A DNA stretch of 64,000 bases, from NCBI GenBank assembly GCA_963806205.1, contig CAWDXF010000003.1:71760-135759 (forward strand), in the 5' to 3' direction. The position numbers and the translations under genes are program-made. Each line of letters starts with the position of its first letter. The stretch's first letter is position 1. This document shows, piece by piece, positions 24,466-39,079 of this stretch. Below the pieces are notes generated by a model that worked only from the letters and a program-made list of their open reading frames with translations, was not told the DNA's origin and ran no database searches. Origin of the DNA: an uncultured Microthrixaceae bacterium (GTDB lineage: Bacteria; Actinomycetota; Acidimicrobiia; Acidimicrobiales; VFJN01).

Positions 24466-25498
24466 GTGCCCGCCGACGGCGACGTGCCGCTCGCGTTCGC
24501 AGGGGCGGGTTGGATCGCCGCGCTGCACGGCTACGCGGTCGGGCTGATCCCGGGCCTGACGGTCACCGCGGTCGCATCGCGCGACCGCACGCGTGCAGCG
24601 GCTGCCGCCGAGCGGATGGGGGCGCGGCCGTGCACCTACGACGAGCTCCCGGCCGGCGCCCGCGGCGTGGTCGTGTGCACCCCACCGGCGCTGCACGCGG
24701 ACCAGGCCCTGGCGGCGGTGGGCACCGGCGCGGGCGTGCTGATCGAGAAGCCGCTCTGCACGACGCTGGCCGACGCCGACCGCCTCGTCGACGCGGCCGC
24801 CGGAGGTGCCACCATCGCGTACGCGGAGAACCTGGTGCACTCGCCTGCCGTGCAGCTGGCGCTGACCCATGCAGGGCACCTCGACGGCATCGACATGATC
24901 GAGGTGCGTGCGCTCCAGCCCCGCCCGACCTGGGGCGACTTCCTCACCGAGGGGTGGGGCGGCGGCGTGCTGTTCGACCTGGGCGTCCACCCGCTGGCCA
25001 TCGCCCTCCTGCTCGCGGCACCGGCCCGACCGGCCGAGGTGCGGGCCGTGCTGGAGGGCGCGGCGGACCACCCGGTCGACGAGCACGCCGAGGTCACCAT
25101 CCGCTTCGAGGACGACGCGTTCGCCCGCGTGATCGCCAGCTGGCGGGGGCCGGAGCAACCGGTGTGGGACGCGCAGGCGTCCTCCCCCGATGGCGTCGTG
25201 CGCCTGGAGCTGCTACCCAGCGTCGCGCTCGAGCGCGACGGGGCGCCCGTGCCCCTCCCCGGAGTCCCCGACGGGGTCCCGGCCCCGCTCGTGGACCTCG
25301 GCTACCTGGCCCAGCTCACCGCCTTCGCGCGACGACCTCCGCACCGGCGCGCCACCTGCGTTGGGCGCCGCCTTCGGTCGCAGCGTCCTCGACGTGACCT
25401 GCGCGGCGTACGCCTCGGCCGGCCAGGACGGCGCCTGGGTCGAGCTTCCCTTCGGCGGCGATCGGAACTCGACGCCGCTGCAGCTCTGGCGTCGATAG
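24466..25498 (+). pseudogene. Gfo/Idh/MocA family oxidoreductase, one frame break near 25330
   Basis: N-terminal Rossmann fold (FAGAGWIA...VVVCTPPALHADQA...VLIEKPL). The C-terminus continues in ORF 25190..25498 (...DDLRTGAPPALGAAFGRSVLDV...). Confidence 0.8.
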
Positions 25499-25507
25499 GT
25501 TCGGCGG

Positions 25508-27274
25508 ATGCCTCCGCGGATGTCCGATCGGCGGATCCTCGTGCGCGGGTTCGTCCTGCTGTGGCGGTCCGTCCGCACCCACCCGCGCCCGTTCGCCGTC
25601 TCCCTCGCGGGCGCGACGATCTACGGCGTCATGGCCGTGGGCGGCACGATCGTGCTCGGTCGCGTCACGGACCGTGTGCTCACCCCCGCGTTCGAGGAGG
25701 GTGGCGTCGAGGGCAGCGCCGTGGCGATCGGAGCGGCCGCCATCGTGGGTGCCTCCGTGCTGCGGATGCTGGGGGTGGTCCTGCGCCGGTACTTCGGCCA
25801 GATGGCCCAGCGCCGCATGCAGGTCCACTGGTTCCAGCCGCGTCACGGACCGCTACCTGGCGGTGCCGCTGCGCTGGTTCGACGACCACCCTGCGGGCGA
25901 GCTGCTGGCCCACGCCGACGCGGACTGCGAGCGGGCCACGATGGCCATGCAGCCGCTGCCGTTCTCGCTCGGGGTCATCGTCATCATCGTGGTGTCGATG
26001 GTGCAGCTGGCGTTCGTCGACCCAGCGCTGCTCGGGGTCGGGCTGGCGCTGTTCCCGAGCCTCGCGCTGCTCAACAACGCCTACACGAAGCGGGTGGAGC
26101 GCCCCGCCGCCACCGCGCAGGCCCGCGTCGGCGACGTGTCCGCGGTCGCCCACGAGAGCTTCGAAGGCGTGCTCGTGGTCAAGACGCTCGGGCTCGAGGA
26201 GCGCGAGGTGGGGCGGCTCGACGCGGCCGCCCAGGAGCTGCGCGCCGGCCGCGCCTGGCCGTCGGCCGGCTGCGGGCCGGCTTCGAGCCGGGCCTCGACG
26301 CCCTCCCCAGCCTCGGCACCGTGGTGCTGCTGTGGCTCGGCGCCTGGCGGGTCTCGACGGGCGCGCTCACCACCGGCGAGCTCGTCCAGGCGATGGCCCT
26401 GTTCGGCATCCTCGCGTTCCCCTTCCGCGTCGTCGGCTTCCTCCTCGAGGAGCTGCCCGCGGGCGGTGGTCGCGCACGATCGGATCACGAAGGTGCTCGC
26501 CGCGGAGCCCCGCGGCGAGCCCAGCGAGCCCGTCCCGCTTCCCGACGGCGCCCTCGACGTCGTGGTGGACGACGTGTCGTTCGCGTACGGCGACGACCTC
26601 GTGCTGCGCGACGTCCGGGCCCGCCTCGCGCCCGGGGAGGTCGTCGCCCTCGTCGGGTCGACGGGCAGCGGGAAGACCACGCTGTGCAACCTCCTCGCCC
26701 ACCTGGTCGACCCCACCCTGGGCCAGATCCGCCTCGGCGGTGTCGATCTCGACGACCGCGGACCCTGCGGCGCTCGCGCGGGCCACGGCGTTCGTGTTCC
26801 AGGAGACCTTCCTCTTCGCCGACTCCGTGCGGGAGAACCTCTCCCTCGGCGGAGCCCTACGACGACGACGAGCTGTGGGCCGCACTCGAGGTGGCCCGCG
26901 CCCACCGCTTCGTGCACCGCCTGCGGCGGGGCCTCGACGAGGTGATCGGCGAGCGCGGCGTCACGCTCTCGGGCGGTCAGCGCCAGCGGCTCGCCCTCGC
27001 CCGCGCCCTGCTCCGGCGCCCCCGGCTCCTCCTCCTCGACGACGCCACCTCGGCCGTCGACCCGCGGGTCGAGCAGGCCATCCTGGCCGGGCTCCGCGGG
27101 TCCACCGAGGCCACCACGCTCGTGGTCGCCCACCGAGTCTCGACGATCGCGCTGGCCGACCGCGTGCTGCTGTTGGACGACGGCCGCATCGCGGCCGACG
27201 GCACCCACGACGAGCTCCTCGCCGTCCCCGCCTACGCCGCGCTGGTGCAGGCCTACGAGGAGGAGGCGGCGTGA
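25508..27274 (+). pseudogene. ABC exporter, fused permease-ATPase (type 1 exporter), about 5 frame changes
   Basis: Colinear pieces lie in all three frames. The TMD is in ORFs 25508.. and 25674... Walker A GSTGSGKTT is at about 26655..26681. Q-loop FVFQETFLF, signature LSGGQRQR at about 26966, and Walker B LLLLDDATSAVD are present. Confidence 0.85.
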
Positions 27275-29170
27275 CGCAGAGCGCCTCGACAGACCACGAC
27301 GCCGCGGTCGAGGCGCTGGCCGCCGCGTCGCCGCCCGGGAGCAGCGACCACGAACGCCGGCACGCCGACCCGTCGCCCGAGGAAGAGGCCCTCGCCGGCG
27401 CCGGCGCCATCGAGGTGCTGCGGCTCGGGCTCCGCGCCACGCCCGAGCTGCGCCAGGGGATCCTGCTCACCGTCACGCTGGCCGTGGCCACCGCGGTCGG
27501 GAAGCTCGCCGATTCCCGTGCTGATCCAGCAGATCCTGGATCGCGGCGTGCTCGGCGACCAGGGCTACCGGCCGGGGTTCGTCGCTGCGTCCTGCGCGGT
27601 CGTCGCAGTGCTCATCGGCCTCCTGTACGTGGTGAGCCGGGCGCATGTTCGTCCGCCTGATCCGGGCCGCCGAGGCGAGCCTCCTCGGCCTGCGGGTCCG
27701 CACCTTCGACCACATCCACCGCCTCTCGATGGCCGAGCACACCGAGAACCGCCGAGGCGCGCTCGTCGCGCGCGTGACGAGCGACGTCGAGACCCTGGCG
27801 CAGTTCACCGAGTGGGGCGCGGTCGCCTGGATCGTCGACAGCGTGCTCATCGTCACGACCCTGCTGGTCATGGCCGTGTACTCGTGGCAGCTCGCGCTGG
27901 TGGCGCTCGGTGATCTTCCTCCCGCTGCTCCCCCTCGAGCGGGCGCTGCAGCGCCGGCAGCTCGTGGCCTACGACGACGGTGCGCAGGCGGTCGGCGGCA
28001 CGCTGTCCGAGGTGGCCGAGCTCGTCGGCGGCGCGCCGGTCGTGCACGCGTACGGCCTCGAGGCGCCGCACGCGGCAGCCGGCTCGACGCCGCCATCGAC
28101 CGCCAGTACCGCGCCCAGCTGCGCGCGGCGCAGTGGTTCGCGCTGATGTTCCCGCTGGCCGACCTGTTCGGCGCGCTCGCCCTCGCCGCCGTGGTCGCGG
28201 TCGGGGCCACACAAGGGCCCGACTGGGGCCTCGGCTTCGGCGAGCTGATCGGCTTCGTCTTCCTGGTGAACCTGCTGCTCACGCCGATCTCGGAGCTCAG
28301 CGAGATCCTGGACCAGACCCAGACGGCGATCGCGGGGTGGCGCAAGATGCTCGGCGTCCTGGCGACACCGCTGGACGTCGTGGAGCCCGACCACGGCGCC
28401 GTCCTCCCGACGGGCCCGCTCGCGGTGCGCCTCGACGAGCGTGGGCTTCTCCTACCGGCACGGCCCGCCGGTGCTGCACGCGCATCGACCTCGACATCCC
28501 GCGCCGGCACGTCGGTCGCCGTCGTCGGCGAGACCGGCTCGGGCAAGACCACCATCGCCAAGCTGCTCTGCCGGCTGGCCGACCCGACCGCGGGCACGGT
28601 GCTCGTCGGCGGGCACGACCTCCGCGACGGTCGATCCCACGAGCCGGCGCCGCGCCATCCGCATGGTGCCCGCAGGACGGCTTCCTGTTCGACGCCACCA
28701 TCGCCGAGAACGTGCGCCTCGGCCGGGTCGGCGCGGACGACGCGCGAGGTGGCGGCGGCCTTCCGCGCCCTCGGCCTGGACGGCCTGGGTCGACGACCTG
28801 CCCGGCGGACTCGAGGCGCCCGTCGGCGAGCGGGGCGGGAACCTCTCCGTCGGCGAGCGCCAGCTCGTCGCCCTCGCCCGGGCCCAGCTCGGCGACGCCG
28901 GCCTGCTCATCCTCGACGAGGCGACCTCCTCGGTGGACCCGGAGACCGAGCAGGCCCTCGCCGAAGCCCTCGAGCGCCTGGCGGAGGGCCGCACGGTCGT
29001 GAGCATCGCCCACCGGCTCTCGACCGCCGAGCGGGCCGACACCGTGCTCGTGGTCGACGGCGGGGAGATCGTCGAGCGAGGGACCCACGCCGCCCTGGTG
29101 GCGGCAGGCGGGGTCTACGCCCGCCTGTACGAGAGCTGGCTCGGCAACACCCGCGCGGTCACTACCCTGA
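27271..29170 (+). pseudogene. ABC exporter, fused permease-ATPase (partner of 25508..27274), about 10 frame changes
   Basis: GTG 27271 overlaps the upstream TGA (GTGA). Pieces across three frames include LGLRVRTFDHIHRLSMAEH, GETGSGKTT, QDGFLFDATIAENV, LSVGERQLVALARA and LILDEATSSVD. The 3' end is uncertain. Confidence 0.85.
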
Positions 29171-29175
29171 CCGCC

Positions 29176-29623
29176 GTGGCCTCGATCGACGACGTCCGGC
29201 GCCTCGTGGCGCTCGACCACGGGCTGGCCTCGTTGTCGACCGTCCGCGGCGACGGGAGCGTGCACGTCACGGTCGTCAACTCCGGGTTGATCGACCACCC
29301 CGTGGACGGCACCGCGGTGGCGGCCTTCGTGGCGCGCCCGTTCACCCGCAAGCTCGCCAACCTGCGCCAGAACCCCGCGGCCACCCTCCAGTGGCGGGCC
29401 GGGTGGGCGTGGGTGGCGGCCGAGGGCACCGTGGAGGTGGTGGGACCGGGCGAGCCGCTCGCCGGCCTGCGACGCCGCGGCGGTCCCCTCGCTCCTGCGC
29501 ACGATCTACTCCGCGGCCGGGGGCGGCGAGCACGAGGACTGGGCCGAGTACGACCGCGTGATGGCGGCGGAGCAGCGCGTCGCGGTGCTGCTGCGCCCGA
29601 CGCGGATCTACGTCAACCCGTAG
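29176..29623 (+). pseudogene. PPOX-class probable F420-dependent enzyme (pyridoxamine 5'-phosphate oxidase fold), one frame break near 29465
   Basis: From GTG 29176: ASIDDVRRLVALDHGLASLSTVRGDGSVHVTVVN...KLANLRQNPAATLQWRAGWAWVAAEGTVEVVGP. The tail ...EDWAEYDRVMAAEQRVAVLLRPTRIYVNP-stop is in another frame. Confidence 0.6.
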
Positions 29624-30687
29624 CGACGCGGCTCGCGGATCCAGTCCGGGACGCGCTCGCGCAGGAGGTCGCCGGCCTCCGTCATCAGGTGCCCGGTGCC
29701 CGGGCACACCACCAGCTCGGTCGGTCCACCCGCGAGGTGGCACACTGCCTCGCTCGAGAACAGCGGGAGCAGCTCGTCGCGGTCGCCATGGAACGCGAGC
29801 AGCGGCGCGGTGAGGCCACCCGCCTCCTCGCACCCCGCCGACTGCGTCGCGAACGTGACGACGCCCTTGGCCCAGCTCCCCCATGGCCATGCCGGCCCGG
29901 ACGGCGATCGCGCCGCCGAAGCTGTGCCCGCCCGTCACGAACGCGAGCGCGCCCGTGCCGCGCCGCGAGGTCGGCCACCGCGAGCAGGTCGAGCGTGCAA
30001 AGGTCGACGTCGTTCGGACGGCGCCATCCCACCCGCAGCACGCCGATCCCGGACCCGGGCGTCGCCGAGCTCCTCGCCCAGCCACTGGTAGAGGCCGTCG
30101 GCGGGCCCGAGCAGCCCGCCCATCGCGCCGCCGCCGAGCACGACCACCGCCGGCGCGTCCGGGTCGCCGTGCCACAGCACCGTGAGCAGCCCGCGGAGCG
30201 TGAACACCTCCAGGTGGCGCAGGCCCGGGCCGAGCGCGACCTCCTGGCGCCCCAGCGCCTCGAGCATGTCGAGCGGACCCGGCCATCGCGCTACGCCGAC
30301 CGTGCCGTCGACGACGGCCTCGACCTCGACCTCGAGCCGCCAAGCCGGGTCGAGCAGCGCCGCCGACCACGACCGTGGTGTTGGCCGGGCGGATCTCGCG
30401 GAACACCTCGCCGTGCACCGCCGCCACGGCGTCGAAGTCGGCCGCGTCGACGAGGTACACGCGCGTGCGCACGACGTCCGCGAACGATGGCGCCCGCCTC
30501 GGCCAGCGCGGCGCCGATGATCTCGAAGCAGCGGCGGGCCTGCACGCCGGCATCGGGGTCGACGCGAGCCGTCGGGCCACTGCGGGGCGGTGCCGGAGAG
30601 CACGACCCGGTCGCCGACCCGGACCGCCCGGCTGTAGCCGACCACCGGCTCGTAGGGCGAACCCGAGGAGATCGTCCGCCGCTCCAT
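29608..30687 (-). pseudogene. RidA (YjgF/Rid family) domain fused in frame to an alpha/beta-hydrolase (dienelactone-hydrolase-like) domain; about 7 frame changes
   Basis: RidA pieces are [75 protein letters not shown] and [16 protein letters not shown]. The ORF continues without a stop into [18 protein letters not shown]. Then come [14 protein letters not shown] (GxSxG), LAFHGDRDELL and CPGTGHLM. Confidence 0.7.
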
Positions 30688-30741
30688 CGCGGCACCCTAC
30701 CGGTGGCGCCGCGGCCGGCTGTTCGAGTAGCCAAGCCCGGC

Positions 30742-31450
30742 ATGACCTGGCGGCGCCGCGCTGCGCGACCTCTCGGCGCCCGTCGTCCACCGCCTCTGGT
30801 ACTGGATGCGATGGGCGGGCTCGGTCGGACCCGGTGACGCCCGTGGCCGGCGGTTCGCCCACCTCGGCGAGGGCGCGCTCCTCACGTTCCCGTTCGGCGA
30901 CCTGCTCGGCGAGGAGCACATCTCCATCGGCGCCGGGACGCTCGTCGCCCCGCACGTGTCCCTCTCGGTCGGCATGGCATCCGGACAGCCGCTGCCGCCC
31001 GGGGCCACGAGCCCGGTGCTGCGGATCGGCGCACCGGTGCTCGATCGGGCGGGGCAACCACCTCGTCGCCCACCGGTCCGTGGTCATCGGCGACGACGTG
31101 ATCACCGGGCCCCGAACTGCTACGTGACCGACCAGAACCACGTGTACGCGGACCCGGCCGTGCCGATCGGCCGAGCAGTGGCCGGCCGAGGACCCCGTCG
31201 AGATCGGCAGCGGGTCGTGGATCGGCGCCGGGGCGGTCATCCTGCCGGGCACACGGCTCGGGCGGAACACCGTGGTCGCCGCGGGCGCCGTCGTGCGGGG
31301 CGAGTTTCCCGATCACGCCGTGCTGGCAGGCGTGCCCGCCCGGCTCGTGCGGCGCTGCGACCCCGCCGAGGGCTGGCAGCCGGCGCTGCGCGACGCTGCA
31401 CATCGAGCCGCCCGCCGGGCTGGCCGGTCGCCGGACCGGGGCGACGGTAG
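30742..31450 (+). pseudogene. Hexapeptide-repeat (LbH) acyl/acetyltransferase, about 4 frame changes
   Basis: Pieces across frames: HISIGAGTLVAPHVSLS, IGRGNHLVAHRSVVIGDDVITGP, YVTDQNHVYADP, IGSGSWIGAGAVILPGTRLGRNTVVAAGAVV and VLAGVPARLV. Confidence 0.65.
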
Positions 31451-31483
31451 GGTCCGCAGCACCACGACGACAGGGGGTCGGGG

Positions 31484-32632
31484 ATGGCCGAGATCCAGGG
31501 CAGGTGCGACGAGCGCGTTCGCGGGAGTGCGGGACGTGCTCGTCGCCAACCTCGACGCGGGCAAGGACGTCGGGCGCGTCGGTCGCCGTCGTCCACGACG
31601 GTGAGCTGGTCGTCGACCTGTGGGGCGGCACGATCGACGACGACGGCACCCCGTGGGCCGAGGACACGATCATCAACGTCTGGTCGACGACGAAGACCAT
31701 GACGGCGCTGTGCGCGCTGCTCCTCGCCGACCGCGGCGAGCTCGACCTGCACGCGCCCGTGGCCGACCTACTGGCCGGAGTTCGCGGCCGAGGGCAAGGA
31801 GGGCGTGCTCGTCTGCCACCTGCTCGGGCACACCGCGGGTCTGCCGGGGTTGGACGAGCCGATGGTGCCCGAGGACCTGTACGACTGGGAGAAGTGCCAC
31901 GCCCGCCTCGCGGCCCAGGCGCCGTGGTGGGAGCCGGGCACCGCCTCGGGCTACCACGCCATCACGCAGGGCTACCTCGTGGGCGAGGTGGTGCGGCGCG
32001 TCACGCGGCCGCACCGCTCGGCACCTTCTTCGCCGAGGAGCTGGCCGGCCCGCTGGGCGCCGACTTCCACATCGGCACCGGCCCGGAGCACGACGACCGC
32101 GTGGCGCTGGTCATCCCGCCCGAGGGCGAGTCGCTCGTGGCCGGCCTCGAGCCCGGGCAGCATCCCGGCCCGCGTCTTCACGGCAACCCGGCGGGGTCGG
32201 ACGCCGCGCGTCGCGTGGACGGAGGGGTGGCGCCGCTGCGAGAGCCCCGCCGCCAACGGGCACGGCAACGCCCGGTCCGTCGGCGCGCGTGCAGTCGGTC
32301 CTGTCCCACGGCGGCGAGGTCGACGGCATCCGCCTCCTGTCGCCCGCCGGCTGCGAGGCCGCATTCGAGGAGCAGGCCAAGGGCGACGGACCTCGTGCTC
32401 GGCGTGCCGCTCTGCCTCGGCATGGGCTACGGCATCAACTCCGCCGAGCTGCCCATCGCGCCCGAACCCGCGCGCCTGCTTCTGGGGCGGCTGGGGTGGC
32501 TCGATCGTCATCAACGACCTCGACGCCCGCCTCACCGTCGCCTACGTCATGAACCGCATGGGCGAGGGCACGACCGGCGACGACCGCGGCATCGGCATCG
32601 CGCTCGCCACCTTCATGGCCGTGATGGGCTGA
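31484..32632 (+). pseudogene. Serine hydrolase (class C beta-lactamase/esterase family), about 6 frame changes
   Basis: VWSTTKTMTALCALLLADRGELDL (SxxK motif), LLGHTAGLPG, YHAITQGYLVGEVV, HGNARS, and FWGGWGGSIVINDLDARLTVAYVMN spread over three frames. Confidence 0.8.
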
Positions 32633-32635
32633 GCC

Positions 32636-33122
32636 CTGGGGCTAGCCGTCGGCCACCTGCTCGTCGTCTGGCACCCGCGGCCGCCGTCGATCGCGCAGCT
32701 GCGCGACGCGGTGCTGGCCGGCATCGAGCGACGCCGGCACCGGACTGCGACGTCCGGTCGCTCGCGGCGCCCGACGCGGGCGTCGACGACGTGGAGGGAG
32801 CGGCCGCGCGCCGTGCTCGTGACGCCCGGAGAACTTCGGCATGGTGTCCGGGCTCGTGAAGGACTTCCTCGAGCGCATCTACCCGTGGTTCGAGGAGGTG
32901 CCGAACCGCCGACCCGGGCCTCCCGTACCTGCTCGTCGTCGAAGGGCGCGTCCGACGGCACCGGCGCGGTGCGCGACGTCACGCGCATCCTCACTGGGCT
33001 GCGGTGGCGGGAGGTCCTGCCCCCGATCGTGATCGCGGGGAGCGGTGGCCGACGAGCACATCGCCGCGCGTGCGGGAGCAGGCGGCCACGCTCGCAATCG
33101 GCGTCGACACCGGCGTGTTCTG
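32636..33122 (+). pseudogene. Flavodoxin-like fold NAD(P)H-dependent oxidoreductase, several frame changes; start not identifiable
   Basis: Pieces are LLVVWHPRPPSIAQLRDAVLAGIE, MVSGLVKDFLERIYPWFEEVPNRRPG, LPYLLVVEG..SDGTGAVRDVTRILTGLRWREVLPPIVIAGS and REQAATLAIGVDTGVF-stop at 33122. Confidence 0.5.
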
Positions 33123-33139
33123 ACGGCCAGACTCGCTCG

Positions 33140-33975
33140 ATGCCCCCCGTCGAGCTCGTCGTCACCGACCTCGACGGCACGCTGTGGCACACCGACGACC
33201 GACGTGCACGAGCGACGTCGTCGCCGCGCTCCGTGAGCTGGAGCGCCGCGGCGTGCCGTGGCTGGTGGCCACCGGCCGCCGGGTGGCCTCGACGCGGGCG
33301 CCCGCTCGCCGCGGTCGGCATGGCCCCGCCCGCCGTGGTGCTGAACGGCGCGCTCGGGCCTCGACCTGCCACCGGCGAGCGCTTCCACCGCGCCACCGTT
33401 CCCGACCGACCAGGCGGTCGCCGCGGTCGCCGCGTTCCGATCCGTCGGGCTCGACCCGGTCGTCTACGTCGACCATCCGGACGTCGACGTGTTCCTCGGC
33501 CCCGTCCCCGCCACCAACCCGGCAGCACGTCGACCGACCTCGGCGACCACGGCCGCCACCGACGACCTCGCCCGCGTGGCCGCCGAGGAGATCGTGCTCG
33601 GGTTCGGCATGATCGGCGTGCCCCACCGCCGACGGCGTCGCCGCCGTCGGCGCGCTCGGCGAGCTGCGGTCGAGGTCCACCTCGACCGCTCGCATCGACT
33701 ACCCCGGCATGGCGTCGCTCACCGTCGCGCCGCAGGGCCAGTCGAAGTGGGATGGCGTGCTCGCGTTCTGCGCCGCCCGCGGCCTGCGGTCCGACCGCGT
33801 GCTCGCGGTGGCCGACGGCCCCAACGACCTCGAGCTGCTCGAGCCACGCCGCCGTGCGCGGCGGTGCCAGCGGTGGCCCACCCCGCCGCCCTCGAGCGCG
33901 CCGACCACGTGATCCCCGCCGCCGCCGACGGCGGCTGGGCCGGCCGTGCTCGCGCTGCTCGGCGACCTCAGCCCT
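33140..33975 (+). pseudogene. HAD-superfamily (Cof-type, IIB) hydrolase, about 6 frame changes; 3' end uncertain
   Basis: ATG 33140 MPPVELVVTDLDGTLWH (DxDGT motif), VPWLVATGRR, PAVVLNGALG, SKWDGVLAFCAARGL and VLAVADGPNDLELL across frames. Confidence 0.7.
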
Positions 33976-34289
33976 GCGTCCTCGTCGTCGGCGCGCCGGC
34001 GACGGAGGTCCCGAGCTGCGTCGGCCAGGCCGGTGGCCAGGCCGGCCGCGCCGCTCCACCACCGCGGCCAGGTAGTGCTCGGCCACCGCGCCCTGCCCCT
34101 GCAGCGGCGGGTCGCCGAGTGAGCGCAGGAGCGCGGTGGGGTCGGGCGCCGCGACGATCGGCGGCGGGGTCGGCCAGCTGGGGCACGGGCCGCCACAGGT
34201 CGGGCCGCTTGGGCTTCTGCCCGCCGCCGCCGGCGGCGGTTGCGGCTTCGCGGCTCTTGCGGCTGGTTCTGGCTGCCGACGTCGGTCAT
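33968..34289 (-). pseudogene. Hypothetical small basic protein downstream of the SNF2 helicase, frame-broken
   Basis: ATG 34289 overlaps the helicase stop (ATGA). It reads MTDVGSQNQPQEPRSRNRRRRRR..., then continues as PPIVAAPDPTALLRSLGDPPLQGQGAVAEHYLAAVVER in another frame. The stop is at 33968. Confidence 0.4.
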
Positions 34290-37200
34290 GTCGCGTCCTC
34301 CGTGAGGAGCGTGTCGGTCCGCAGGCCGAGGGCCACGCGGAGCTGGTCGGCGTCGAGGTCGGACAGCGAGCTCGACTTGGGCAGCACGAGGTCGGCGATG
34401 TGGCGCTTGCCGGCCACGACCTCCTCGACGCGCTCGTCGACCGTGCCGGGGCACACGAGGCGGTGCGACACCACCGTGCGGGTCTGGCCGATGCGCCAGG
34501 CGCGGTCACGGGCCTGGTCCTCCACCGCCGGGTTCCACCAGCGGTCGTAGAGCACGACGTGGCTCGCGGCGGTGAGGTTCAGGCCCGGTGCCGCCCGCCT
34601 TGAGGGACAGCACGAGCGCGCCGGGACCGGTGCCCTGCTGGAACTCGTGCACGAGCCTGTCGCGGGCACCCCGGGCGAGGCCGCCGTGGTAGCAGGCGAT
34701 CGGCGACCCCGGTGACCTCGGTGAGGTGGTCGGCGAGCTTCTTGCCCCACTCGGCGAAGTGGGTGAACACCAGGATGCGCTCCTCCGCCGCGAAGACCGA
34801 CTCGACGATCTCCTCGAGGCGGGCCAGCTTGCCGGAGCGACCCGCCAGCGGCACGTCGTCGTCCTGGTACGCGGCCGGGTGGTTGCAGATCTGCTTGAGC
34901 GCGGTGATCGCGGCGAGGATCGCACCCTGCTTCGGGTCGCCTCCGCTGCTCGCGGTGTCGGCCACCAGGCTGTCGAGCACGGCCTGGTAGAGCCCGATCT
35001 GCTCCGGGCGTCATCGTGCAGTGGTCGAGCTCGTCGATGCGGTCGGGCAGCTCGGCGGCCACCTCGGGCTCGGTCTTCGTGCGGCGGAACACGAGGATGC
35101 CGTTGAGGGCCCGCAGCGCGGCCTCGCCCTCGCCGGAGAGCTGGGCCATGAACGCCGGGCGGGTGCCGACGAGGCCGGGGTTCGTGAAGTCGAGGATGGC
35201 CCAGAGGTCGCCGAGGCCGTTCTCGATCGGCGTGCCCGTCAGCGCGAGCTTCGACGCCGCGGGGATGCGGCGGAGCTGCTGCGCCGTCTCGTTGGCCGGG
35301 TTCTTGATGGCCTGCGCCTCGTCGAGGACCATGCGGCCCCAGTCCAGGCCGGCCAGCGCCTCGACGTCGCGGACGGCGGTGCCGTAGGTGGTGATGACGA
35401 CGTCGGCCTTCTTCACCTTGGCCTTCAGCTCGCGTGCGGTGGCCCGCGACGCGCCGTGGTGCACGACCACCTTCAGCTTGGGCGTGAACTTGTGCGCCTC
35501 CGCCTGCCCAGTTGCCCGACCACGGCGGGCGGGGCGATCACGAGGGTCGGGCCGACGGTCGGTGGTGCGGCGCGATGTGGGCCAGCATCGTCGGCGTCTT
35601 GCCGAGGCCCATGTCGAGGGCGAGGCAGCCGCCGAGGCTCGACCGCGTCGAGGAAGCCGAGCCAGCCGAGCGCCTCGGCCTGGTACGACCGCAGCTCGCC
35701 CTGGAACCCCGGCGGGACGGTGACCGGGTCGGTGGACGCGTGGCTCGCCTTCTCCAGCAGCTCGCTGGCCCAGCCCGCGCCCTCGACCTGGATGCCACCG
35801 GCGAGGCCCGGTCCCTCGAGGCCGACGGCGTGGCGCAGGATCTCGGCGCCGGTGAGCTTCGTGCGGTTGGCGTGCTCCGCCAGCGCGGCGGCCGCCTCCT
35901 TGAGGTCGGCGCGGTCGAGCTCGACCCACCTGCCCCGGGAGCGCACGAGCGGCCGCGCCTCCGCGGCCAGCTTGGCGATGTCCGCAGCGGACAGCTCGAC
36001 GTCGTCGAACACGGCGGACCAACGGACGTTGCTCAGCTGGTTGGCGCCGACCACCGTGTCGCCCGTCGGCTCGGTGAACATGCGCAGCCCGGGCGAGGGC
36101 TTGCGACGGGACAGGATCGGCACCCGGGCCTCGAACCCGGCCGCCTCGAGCGCGCGGCCGGTGATCGTCATCAGCTCCCAGGCCTCGGTCTGGCTCAGGT
36201 ACACCTGGCCGCGCCGGAGGGCGCCGGGGCGGAGCAGCGCCGGGAGGAGGCGCTCGAGCCGGTTGAGGTCGTCGGCCAGCGGGGTGGTGGCGCGGCTGTC
36301 GGTGAGCGCCTGCTCGATCGGGAGCAGGCCGCCCTCCGCGCCGGGACCGAGGACGGACAGGAACCAGGCGCCGCTGCTGTCCGGCGGGTCGAGCTGCACG
36401 ACGAGCCGGCTGCGGACGGGACCCACCACCGGGCGGGCCCAGCGGTCGATGCGCTTGGAGACCTCGGCGCCGGCCGCGACGGGGGCGTCGAACCCGGAGC
36501 CGTCGAGCCGCGTGATGAACGCCTCGGCCACCGCGGCCGGCGTCTGCGTGGTGGGCGGCGGCGCCGGCAGCTCGAGCATCCCGGCCGCGGTCGCGCACGA
36601 TGGCGTCCACGACGGCGCCGAGCACCTCGAGGGTGGTGGCGCGCGCGTCGCTGCGGCGCGAGCAGGGCGATGGCGCCCGGCATCGCCGCGGTGAGCTCGT
36701 CGAGCTGCTTGGCGTCGACGAGGGCCGGCGCCCAGCGCACGGCGAGGTCGAGGCTCTTGCCGTTGGGCCGCTTGGTGCCCCGCAGGGTCGGGACGACCGC
36801 GCCGCGAGCGACGAGGCGCACGGCCTCGACGGCCACCCGGCCGAGCCACGTCACGCTGGCGCCGACGCCCTCGCGGCCGAGGCCGCTGCCCACCGCGGCG
36901 AGCCACCCGAGGCAGCCCTTGACGGGGATCGACAGCGCGGCGGCCTTGGCGCCGTTGGGCAGCACGACGTCGGCGTGGAGGCTCCAGCCCGTCTCGGGGC
37001 CGCCGATGGCCTCGAGGCGGTCGGCCAGCTGGCCGTTGTCCGCGGGCGCCGCGTCGGGACCTGCGGCCCACACGACGACCTCGCCCGCCGACCAGGAGGC
37101 CTGGAGGCGCACCTCACCGGCCGGGTCGGCCGCGGCGATGGCGGCGACCGGGTCCTCGACCTTGGTGAGCAGGTCGTAGGCCGCCTCGAGGCGGGCCAGC

Positions 37201-37412
37201 TCCTGCTCGAAGTCGGCCACCACCTGGTCGCGCTCGGGCCCGTCGATCTGCCGGACCGCGTCGAGCTGCTCCTCCACGTCGTCGAGGAGGCGCTCCAGGG
37301 TGCGGCGCCAGCCGGCCGGATCGGCTTCGAGCTGGGCCAGCTGCTTGGCGGTGGCCGTGCCCTCGGCGGCCGCCCACGCGGCGGTCTCCAGAGCACGTGT
37401 TGCGTCGGGCAT
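34286..37412 (-). pseudogene. SNF2-family (HelZ/RapA-like) helicase, about 1040 aa, about 8 frame changes
   Basis: ATG 37412. A long N-terminal region is followed by LRSYQAEALGWLGFL, LALDMGLGKT, VLDEAQAIKNP, LALTGTPIENGLGDLW, KLARLEEIV...ILVFTHF, SLKAGGTG and LYDRWWNPAVEDQARDRAWRIGQ. The pieces are colinear over ORFs 36195.., 35473.., 34286.., 34579.. and 34506... Confidence 0.9.
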
Positions 37413-37566
37413 CGTGGACCGGCCCCCCTTGGGCCGTTCGCCTCCTGCCGTCTTCCTCCGGGAGGCATCCCGCTGGCACTCCACCGCCCCGGGCTGGGGC
37501 GGGAGGCCGAGCACGTCAAGGGTACCGCACGCCTCCCCCGAGAGCACCTTCCGGCTCAGGTCCCGC

Positions 37567-39079
37567 TCAGGTCCCCGGGGCCACCAGCGGCCAGGGCCGC
37601 TCCCGCTCGACGGCCAGGGCCACGTCGAGGAGGCGGGCGTCCTCGTGGTGCCGGGCCAGGACCTGCATGCCCACGGGCAGCCCGTCGACGGTCCCGGCGG
37701 GGATCGACACGGCCGGGTTGCCGTAGATGTTGGAGATGATCGTGAGGGCGCCCATGTTCACGAGGTCCGGGAAGCGCTTGGAGGCCTGCCCGAGGAGGGC
37801 GGAGGGGGTCTTGGGGGCGAAGGCGGCCACGAGACGGGTGGCCAGCAGCACGCCCCGGAAGGCCACCTTCGCGACGGGGTTCGCCACCGCCCAGTCGAGG
37901 AAGCTCGTCTCGCTGCTGCTCTTGGACGCCGCCGCGGGGAAGGCGGGGCCCGGGTTCGTGGCGGCGACGAGGAAGTCGACCTGCTCGAACGCGGCGGCCA
38001 TGACCTCGTTCGCCTGGATGCGCAGCTCCTCGGCCACCGACGCCGTCCGCAGGTTGTACAGGGAGTCGGACAGGCGGACGCCGATCGCCACCTCCTCGGT
38101 GAGATCACCGGCGCACTCGGGCCAGTGGTCGCCGAGGTCGGCCATCAGCGTGGCGAGGTTGCCCATCATCCACTGGGCCGCCAGGTTCGGCGGCCGCACG
38201 TCGAGGTCGACCGGCACCATCCCGGCGTCCGCGATCAGCGCGGCCGCCTCGGCGCGGATGCGTTCCTCCACGCCCGGCTCGAGGGTGATCCCGCCCAGGT
38301 TCGGGACGATCGCCACCCGCAGCGCCGCGGAGGTCGTGCGTGCCGAGCCCGGCCTCCCAACCACCGGGCGAGGGCAGCGTCGAGGGGTCGTACGGGTCCT
38401 GCCCCGCGCACACGTCGTAGTAGCGGGCCGCGTCGCGCACGGAGCGGGCCAGGTTGCCGAGCACGACCGTGTTGGGCCGCATGAAGGCGTGCGGCGCGCG
38501 CGTGATGCGACCGAACGTGCCCTTCATGCCGAGCAGGCCGGTGTACCCGGCGGGGATGCGGATCGACCCGCCCCCGTCACCGCCGGTGGCGAGGCTCACG
38601 AGGCCGCCGGCCACCGCCGCGGCCGACCCGCCCGAGGAGCCGCCGACCGTGCACCCGTGACGCCACGGGTTGTGGGTCACGCCGTTGATCTTCGTGACGC
38701 TGACGTTGAGCCCGCCGAACTCGCTGGCAGTGGTCTTGCCCACGGGCACGACACCCCCGTCCTCGACGAGCCGCAGCACCGACCGGGCCGTGTGGTCCGC
38801 GATGCGGTCCTTGTAGACGAGCGATGCCTCCGTCCAGGGCCACCCGGCCACCGGCTCGAGCTCCTTGATGGCGGTGGGCACGCCACCGAAGGGCAGCGAC
38901 ACGTCCGCCTTCACGGCCGCGGCACGGGCGCCCTCCGCGTCGACGTACGAGAACGAGTTGAGCTCCGACGCCTCGATGGCCGCGAGGGAGGCCTCGAGCT
39001 CGTCGACCGGGGAGTGCTCGCCGCGACGGAACGCGTCGACCAGCGAGCACGCGTCGCCCTGCCAGGGAAGGTCGGCCAT
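37567..39079 (-). pseudogene. Amidase (amidase-signature family), one frame break near 38340
   Basis: ATG 39079. It has GGSSGGSAAAVA, GGSIRIPA and an upstream Lys (PTAIKEL). ORF 38105..39793 joins ORF 37567..38364 colinearly. Confidence 0.9.

Follow-up and report, generated by a model that had tools for sequence, protein, structure and literature searches.

Why should twelve consecutive genes, with largely intact genes on either side, have to be read in two or three frames each before a colinear protein can be recovered? The question is raised by a stretch of 64,000 nucleotides (hereafter the window, with positions counted from its first letter), which covers positions 71,760 to 135,759 of contig CAWDXF010000003.1 in the assembly GCA_963806205.1 of an uncultured Microthrixaceae bacterium. 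A sequence-only reading of the window had reported dense frame changes between about 25.3 and 37.4 kb and had preferred to see in them a locally poor consensus. Our results revealed that nearly every break is a single inserted base, that the breaks are specific to this assembly and gathered in about 30 patches, that they also fall in indispensable single-copy genes, and that they are not reproducible where the same locus was assembled twice. From these comparisons of assembled sequences we hold it highly probable that the block is a patch of consensus errors in a long-read metagenome-assembled genome (MAG) and not a biological phenomenon, with the assembly having apparently inserted about one spurious base per 170 nt into intact genes.

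To locate frame changes in such a genome requires some care. At 74% GC, long open reading frames (ORFs) occur in every frame, so that ORF lists were not relied on, and a codon-phase plot based on the GC content of third codon positions (GC3) was used together with a seven-state hidden Markov model (HMM) of the coding phase. The phase switches every 50-700 nt between about 25.3 and 36.7 kb, and the HMM counts 48 switches per 12 kb in the block, where the median for the genome is 16-17; in nine relatives the orthologous loci have about 1.0-1.4 phase segments per kb, with the long genes intact. The breaks themselves were placed with a frameshift-aware protein-to-DNA dynamic-programming aligner, validated on a planted example, for which the relatives' intact orthologous ORFs served as queries. 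Plain tblastn was tried for this purpose and given up, because at 74% GC its high-scoring segment pairs pass through frame errors.

With one reference taken for each gene, 69 frame-breaking events were found along 4,794 aligned codons, of which 63 are +1, five are +2 and one is -1. Independent nucleotide alignments with MAFFT gave 78 distinct insertions of 1-2 bp that are present only in the window, 76 of them single-base, and one window-only deletion of 1 bp; the resulting ratio of 76:1 between single-base insertions and deletions is far from the 50:50 expectation (p = 5e-22). Altogether the dense patch extends over 25330..36660, with no strand to be assigned to it, and is nearly clean on both sides; together with one straggler near 38.33 kb it accounts for about 70-78 breaks in the twelve genes, or about 6 presumably spurious single-base insertions per kb, while in the flanks breaks are sporadic (about 0.1-0.2 per kb). 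The dense frame changes described by the sequence-only reading are real, then, in counts near and slightly above its own estimates, and its statement that the flanking genes are largely intact agrees with ours. Moreover, the break sites are consistent across different references, and the comparison with the closest genomes that it had proposed shows every one of these sites intact in nine relatives of the genus and in three metagenome contigs, with the extra bases absent from all of these nine or more relatives.

Apart from the extra bases, the block looks like ordinary coding sequence. No internal stop occurs in the 4,794 reconstructed codons, the single stop found being located in the upstream extension of a reference ORF, as was to be expected from the earlier remark that the pieces contain no in-frame stops. 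A ratio of nonsynonymous to synonymous substitution rates (dN/dS) near 1 had been named as the mark of true pseudogenes; against the orthologues of one relative (G006) the reconstructed block genes give 0.21-0.52, and the intact flanking genes 0.16-0.65, and dN itself is not raised in the block. A 76:1 insertion bias that comes with neither nonsense codons nor larger lesions does not resemble spontaneous mutation. Judged from these sequences, the organism itself almost certainly carries intact versions of the underlying genes, on which purifying selection acts as usual.

The block is also not alone. It is one of about 30 such patches and nothing unique to this region, which refines the earlier picture of a single poor region. 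The assembly amounts to 3.58 Mb in four contigs (C1 to C4 below) with 74% GC and 86% completeness, and 51 of its 356 10-kb bins, or 14% of the genome, are equally dense in phase switches, forming these patches on all four contigs. The patches elsewhere in the genome are sharply bounded and 10-100 kb long. In the dense bins the +1 and -1 phase shifts number 895:397, against 1123:1139 in the remaining genome, where a balanced ratio is what real gene junctions should give. GC content was considered as a cause of the patches, for example through drop-out in short-read polishing, and was rejected for want of correlation (Spearman 0.01).

Among the genes affected are some that no cell can spare. The only leuS locus (C2:1,540-1,544 kb) carries six frameshifts and lies in at least five pieces in different frames; its identity is given by NCBIfam TIGR00396, which matches the orthologue with 906 bits against a cutoff of 548. 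Likewise rpoB (C2:697197-700642, outside the window) is split across two frames near C2:699,267, with rpoC intact, and as none of the dense patches includes this broken gene, isolated errors like this one would occur throughout the genome. A large translation factor, possibly infB, with an open frame of about 1000 aa, changes frame within its GTPase domain at C4:229760-230267 and is likely another essential gene broken by error. The ileS gene was at one time taken for a further case, its copy on C3 having 21 frameshifts, and was dropped from the argument about essential genes, for which the single-copy leuS and rpoB are used instead, because a second copy on C4, 88.8% identical, is intact.

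This second ileS brings us to the loci that were assembled twice. Joined by overlaps at their ends, the four contigs form a ring in the order C3, C1, C2, C4 and again C3, through C3:803582-806770 with C1:1-3193 (99.0% identity), C1:414893-422503 with C2:3943-11551 (97.3%), C2:1906775-1911828 with C4:1-5056 (98.8%) and C3:4247-17689 with C4:355771-369114 (88.8%). The redundant, strain-divergent copies total about 29 kb, the two ileS genes included, and differ mostly by substitutions (1-10.5%), which indicates that more than one strain has been co-assembled. In the 97.3% pair each copy has a private set of frameshifts: seven fall in one gene of the C1 copy that has none on C2, and further events are confined to the C2 copy. 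As a side observation, the 5-kb overlap between C2 and C4, in which no coding phase is seen, is possibly an rRNA operon.

What kind of error would leave such traces may be read to some extent from the inserted bases themselves. As had been remarked for the breaks that could be reconstructed by eye, they do not sit in long homopolymers: 67% are in runs of a single base, where the background value is 57%. No shared motif or four-base word was found at the insertion sites, the most frequent 4-mer occurring at only 8 of the 73 and the position matrix being flat. The absence of a homopolymer concentration is an argument against the classic nanopore mode of error, not against an artefact as such. 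For a matched null, random insertions were planted into the relatives' intact orthologues and realigned. Compared with this null, the inserted base is more often unlike both of its neighbours (0.78 vs 0.52, p = 2.5e-4), the insertion more often adjoins a column that is variable among the relatives (0.72 vs 0.54, p = 0.008), and, where the window differs from its relatives at the adjacent column, the inserted base is more often the very allele that the relatives have there (0.50 vs 0.24, p = 3.7e-5), a tendency seen in eight of nine genes. A base that differs from its neighbours and matches the relatives' adjacent allele, in an assembly where strains are co-assembled, suggests that two haplotypes have been merged and their alleles written in series. 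The patches would then mark where reads from at least two co-occurring strains had been combined, and where consensus calling or polishing had set down the two alleles of a polymorphic site in succession, thus leaving a +1 insertion. Within the artefact explanation, we consider this mechanism somewhat more probable than not, and the error pattern resembles polymorphic alleles that a mixed-strain consensus has written in series more than it resembles insertion noise of a purely random kind.

A patch of errors could of course arise with no mixing of strains, where few long reads or a missed round of polishing left behind the insertion-dominated noise of the type known from PacBio continuous long reads (CLR). 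This account is nested within the artefact explanation and competes only with collapsed polymorphism as its mechanism; we consider it quite conceivable, at rather less than an even chance. The patch of about 11-13 kb has about the length of one long read, dense patches contain or adjoin five of the eight contig ends, raw CLR errors are reported to comprise insertions at about 8% and deletions at 3% (proovframe preprint), and frameshift trouble is greater at low coverage (PMC8103633). However, randomly planted insertions reproduce neither the excess of bases unlike their neighbours nor the excess of adjacent alleles, and no rise in substitution-type error is visible, dN being normal. Quite another matter is a genuine and very recent pseudogenisation, in which a burst of real +1 insertions would have inactivated the 12-kb segment together with the other patches. 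The sequence-only reading had kept such a burst as its fallback, and it can appeal to the frames that are broken in the deposited sequence and to the accessory character of the block genes, whose loss would be tolerable; but its spectrum, free of nonsense codons and larger indels, would be unlike any known spontaneous one, dN/dS is not relaxed, the only leuS and rpoB, indispensable to any cell, are broken too, two assemblies of one locus disagree on the positions of the breaks, and the damage is spread patchily over 14% of the genome. Given these tests, indirect as they are, such a burst is now very unlikely, whereas the insertion bias, the lack of nonsense codons, the normal dN/dS, the patches across the genome and the copy-private frameshifts all favour the poor consensus that the same reading had preferred.

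Two further explanations would take the extra bases as real. They might belong to a sub-population with a patchy, insertion-only (+1) mutational process that acts on segments of 10-100 kb, co-resident and unassembled strains supplying the intact essential genes, and this we rate as still a little less likely than the burst. Or they might be bypassed by programmed recoding, be it +1 ribosomal frameshifting, quadruplet decoding or a correction made in the transcript; in favour of this it can be said that the events are nearly uniform in sign (+1) and that the reconstructed proteins are perfectly colinear with their orthologues. Yet the sites share no motif or four-base word, not one of them has its extra base in any of the nine or more relatives, the events cluster by patch instead of by gene, and the duplicate copies of one locus differ. 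The lack of a homopolymer link, taken with the lack of a motif, rules out both the classic nanopore homopolymer mode and recoding, to which we leave only a negligible probability.

Several points weigh on the other side and temper the preferred explanation of consensus errors in a mixed-strain assembly. Its evidence is drawn from assembled sequences, and the mixed-strain signal is a statistical one, with an effective number of about 49 sites. Insertions seemed at first to be in excess immediately before the wobble base, but the planted null gives the same slot distribution (43-47%), which identifies this signal as an artefact of the aligner. The error profile is atypical of current nanopore data, where homopolymer deletions would be expected, and one other patch (near C1:~420 kb) consists mainly of -1 events, which means that the process varies between patches. 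A search for an independent assembly of this population found none: the closest metagenome contig is 78% identical and one partial contig 91%, and among 5.8 billion proteins the helicase of the block matches none above 91% identity.

The twelve genes were named by Pfam and NCBIfam searches on their intact orthologues, and the catalytic motifs quoted earlier as retained are all present where they had been placed. The patch opens with a GFO/IDH/MocA-family oxidoreductase (24466..25495, plus strand; PF01408/PF22725; five orthologues aligned), whose one extra-base break near the 3' end, at about 25.33-25.35 kb, marks the upstream edge. It is followed on the same strand by two ABC exporters. The one at 25499..27271, with a transmembrane domain and an ATPase, has 5-6 breaks and keeps its Walker A (GSTGSGKTT, 26655-26681) and signature (LSGGQRQR, 26966-26989); the break that had been reconstructed near 25835 as a single inserted base is indeed one extra base. 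The other, at 27268..29157, has 12 single extra-base breaks, on the sites of which four references concur, and also retains its Walker A (GETGSGKTT, 28527-28553). Two conserved proteins with no Pfam family come after them, one of 150 aa (29154..29620, plus strand, 1-2 breaks) and one of about 230-237 aa (29632..30325, minus strand, 3-4 breaks). The RidA / endoribonuclease L-PSP family gene at 30295..30696 (minus strand; PF01042) has three breaks.

From there four genes follow on the plus strand, namely a hexapeptide-repeat acetyltransferase (30667..31443; PF00132) with 5-7 breaks as judged from eight references, a beta-lactamase-family serine hydrolase (31478..32629; PF00144) with nine, an FMN-reductase / flavodoxin-like gene (32645..33120; PF03358) with eight in 476 nt, the reconstructed protein being 90-93% identical to its orthologues, and a hydrolase of the HAD superfamily, Cof-type (33055..33963; PF08282), with 9-11 and with its DLDGT kept at 33167-33181. 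The minus-strand gene at 34289..37475 encodes an SNF2-family helicase (SCO1167-like; about 1039 aa in relatives), with its DEAQ motif at 35312-35323 on that strand. It has 10 single extra-base breaks, and the same ten sites are obtained from five independent references, three of them orthologues from unrelated metagenomes; the last break, near 36.66 kb, is the downstream edge of the dense patch. The domains of this protein are PF00176, PF12419 and PF00271, and its top NCBIfam match is the SCO1167/SCO6262 helicase family, with a score under the cutoff of that family. A search with the query read through the breaks returned 7,790 relatives at E <= 1e-100; the top matches are intact and about 1039 aa long, the best named ones come from Acidimicrobiales MAGs and Aquihabitans, and the length is nearly constant among Acidimicrobiales metagenome proteins. 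The last of the twelve is an amidase (37570..38896, minus strand) with one isolated extra-base break near 38.33 kb.

Outside the patch, single extra-base breaks were noticed in otherwise clean flanking genes at about 832, 13222, 14531, 21827 and 38325 of the window. For position ~19205, where a single inserted base had also been proposed, the reference relative has no syntenic orthologue. On C2, a tandem 3.8-kb duplication (81% identity) and a region of internal repeats (64-68% identity) were observed at C2:1629691-1637199 and C2:415362-419491, respectively; they may be large repetitive genes, and are unrelated to the error patch.

To sum up, the biological significance of the block is minimal, as its twelve genes are ordinary ones that the organism almost certainly possesses in intact form. 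The practical consequence is of another kind. The assembly serves as the species representative in a public genome collection, and about 14% of it would carry around 6 spurious insertions per kb; with patches covering so much of the genome, gene calls, pseudogene counts and the completeness estimate are unreliable, as is any 'broken gene' or 'novel short ORF' that derives from the patches, and the assembly should be re-polished before gene-level results from the dense patches are given any trust. The problem may be shared by other few-contig genomes of the genus, which are also low in completeness. For instance, five highly contiguous relatives that likewise serve as species representatives, G003 (1 contig, 80%), G015 (2, 58%), G017 (6, 81%), G019 (5, 88%) and G022 (10, 87%), are probably affected by indel errors of this kind, and at one locus (L006) of G015 we observed 1.68 phase switches per kb, above many-contig relatives. 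If the mechanism of serially written alleles is confirmed, then +1 insertions outside homopolymers and beside variable sites would provide a simple diagnostic for errors from strain collapse.

It remains to compare the block with known systems. In real reductive decay, such as that of Mycobacterium leprae, deletions, insertions, nonsense mutations and larger lesions accumulate together, dN/dS is relaxed and the essential genes are spared. The block resembles this state in having many adjacent genes with disrupted frames; however, it shows neither mixed lesions nor a relaxed dN/dS, and in this genome essential genes are hit. A closer likeness is found in the indel errors of long-read assemblies, as addressed by proovframe and by the MEGAN-LR/DIAMOND correction (PMC8103633), which also present colinear genes spread over several frames with no nonsense codons, in contiguous assemblies whose CheckM-type completeness stays at about 85% and in which the effect is regionally uneven. 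In the latter study MAGs rose above a completeness of about 85% only once their frameshift errors had been corrected, and the 86% of the present four-contig assembly fits this lowered value. Nevertheless the likeness is not complete, for nanopore residuals usually concern homopolymer length and include many deletions, while the events here are nearly pure +1, lie outside homopolymers and are confined to sharply bounded patches of 10-100 kb. In the literature consulted, no paper was found that presents alleles of single-nucleotide polymorphisms (SNPs) written in series as a cause of +1 insertions. Consensus errors from the collapse of strains (microdiversity) are nonetheless a system with which the assembly has two features in common, namely redundant contig ends that are 88.8-99% identical to each other and inserted bases that favour the alternative alleles of neighbouring variable sites.

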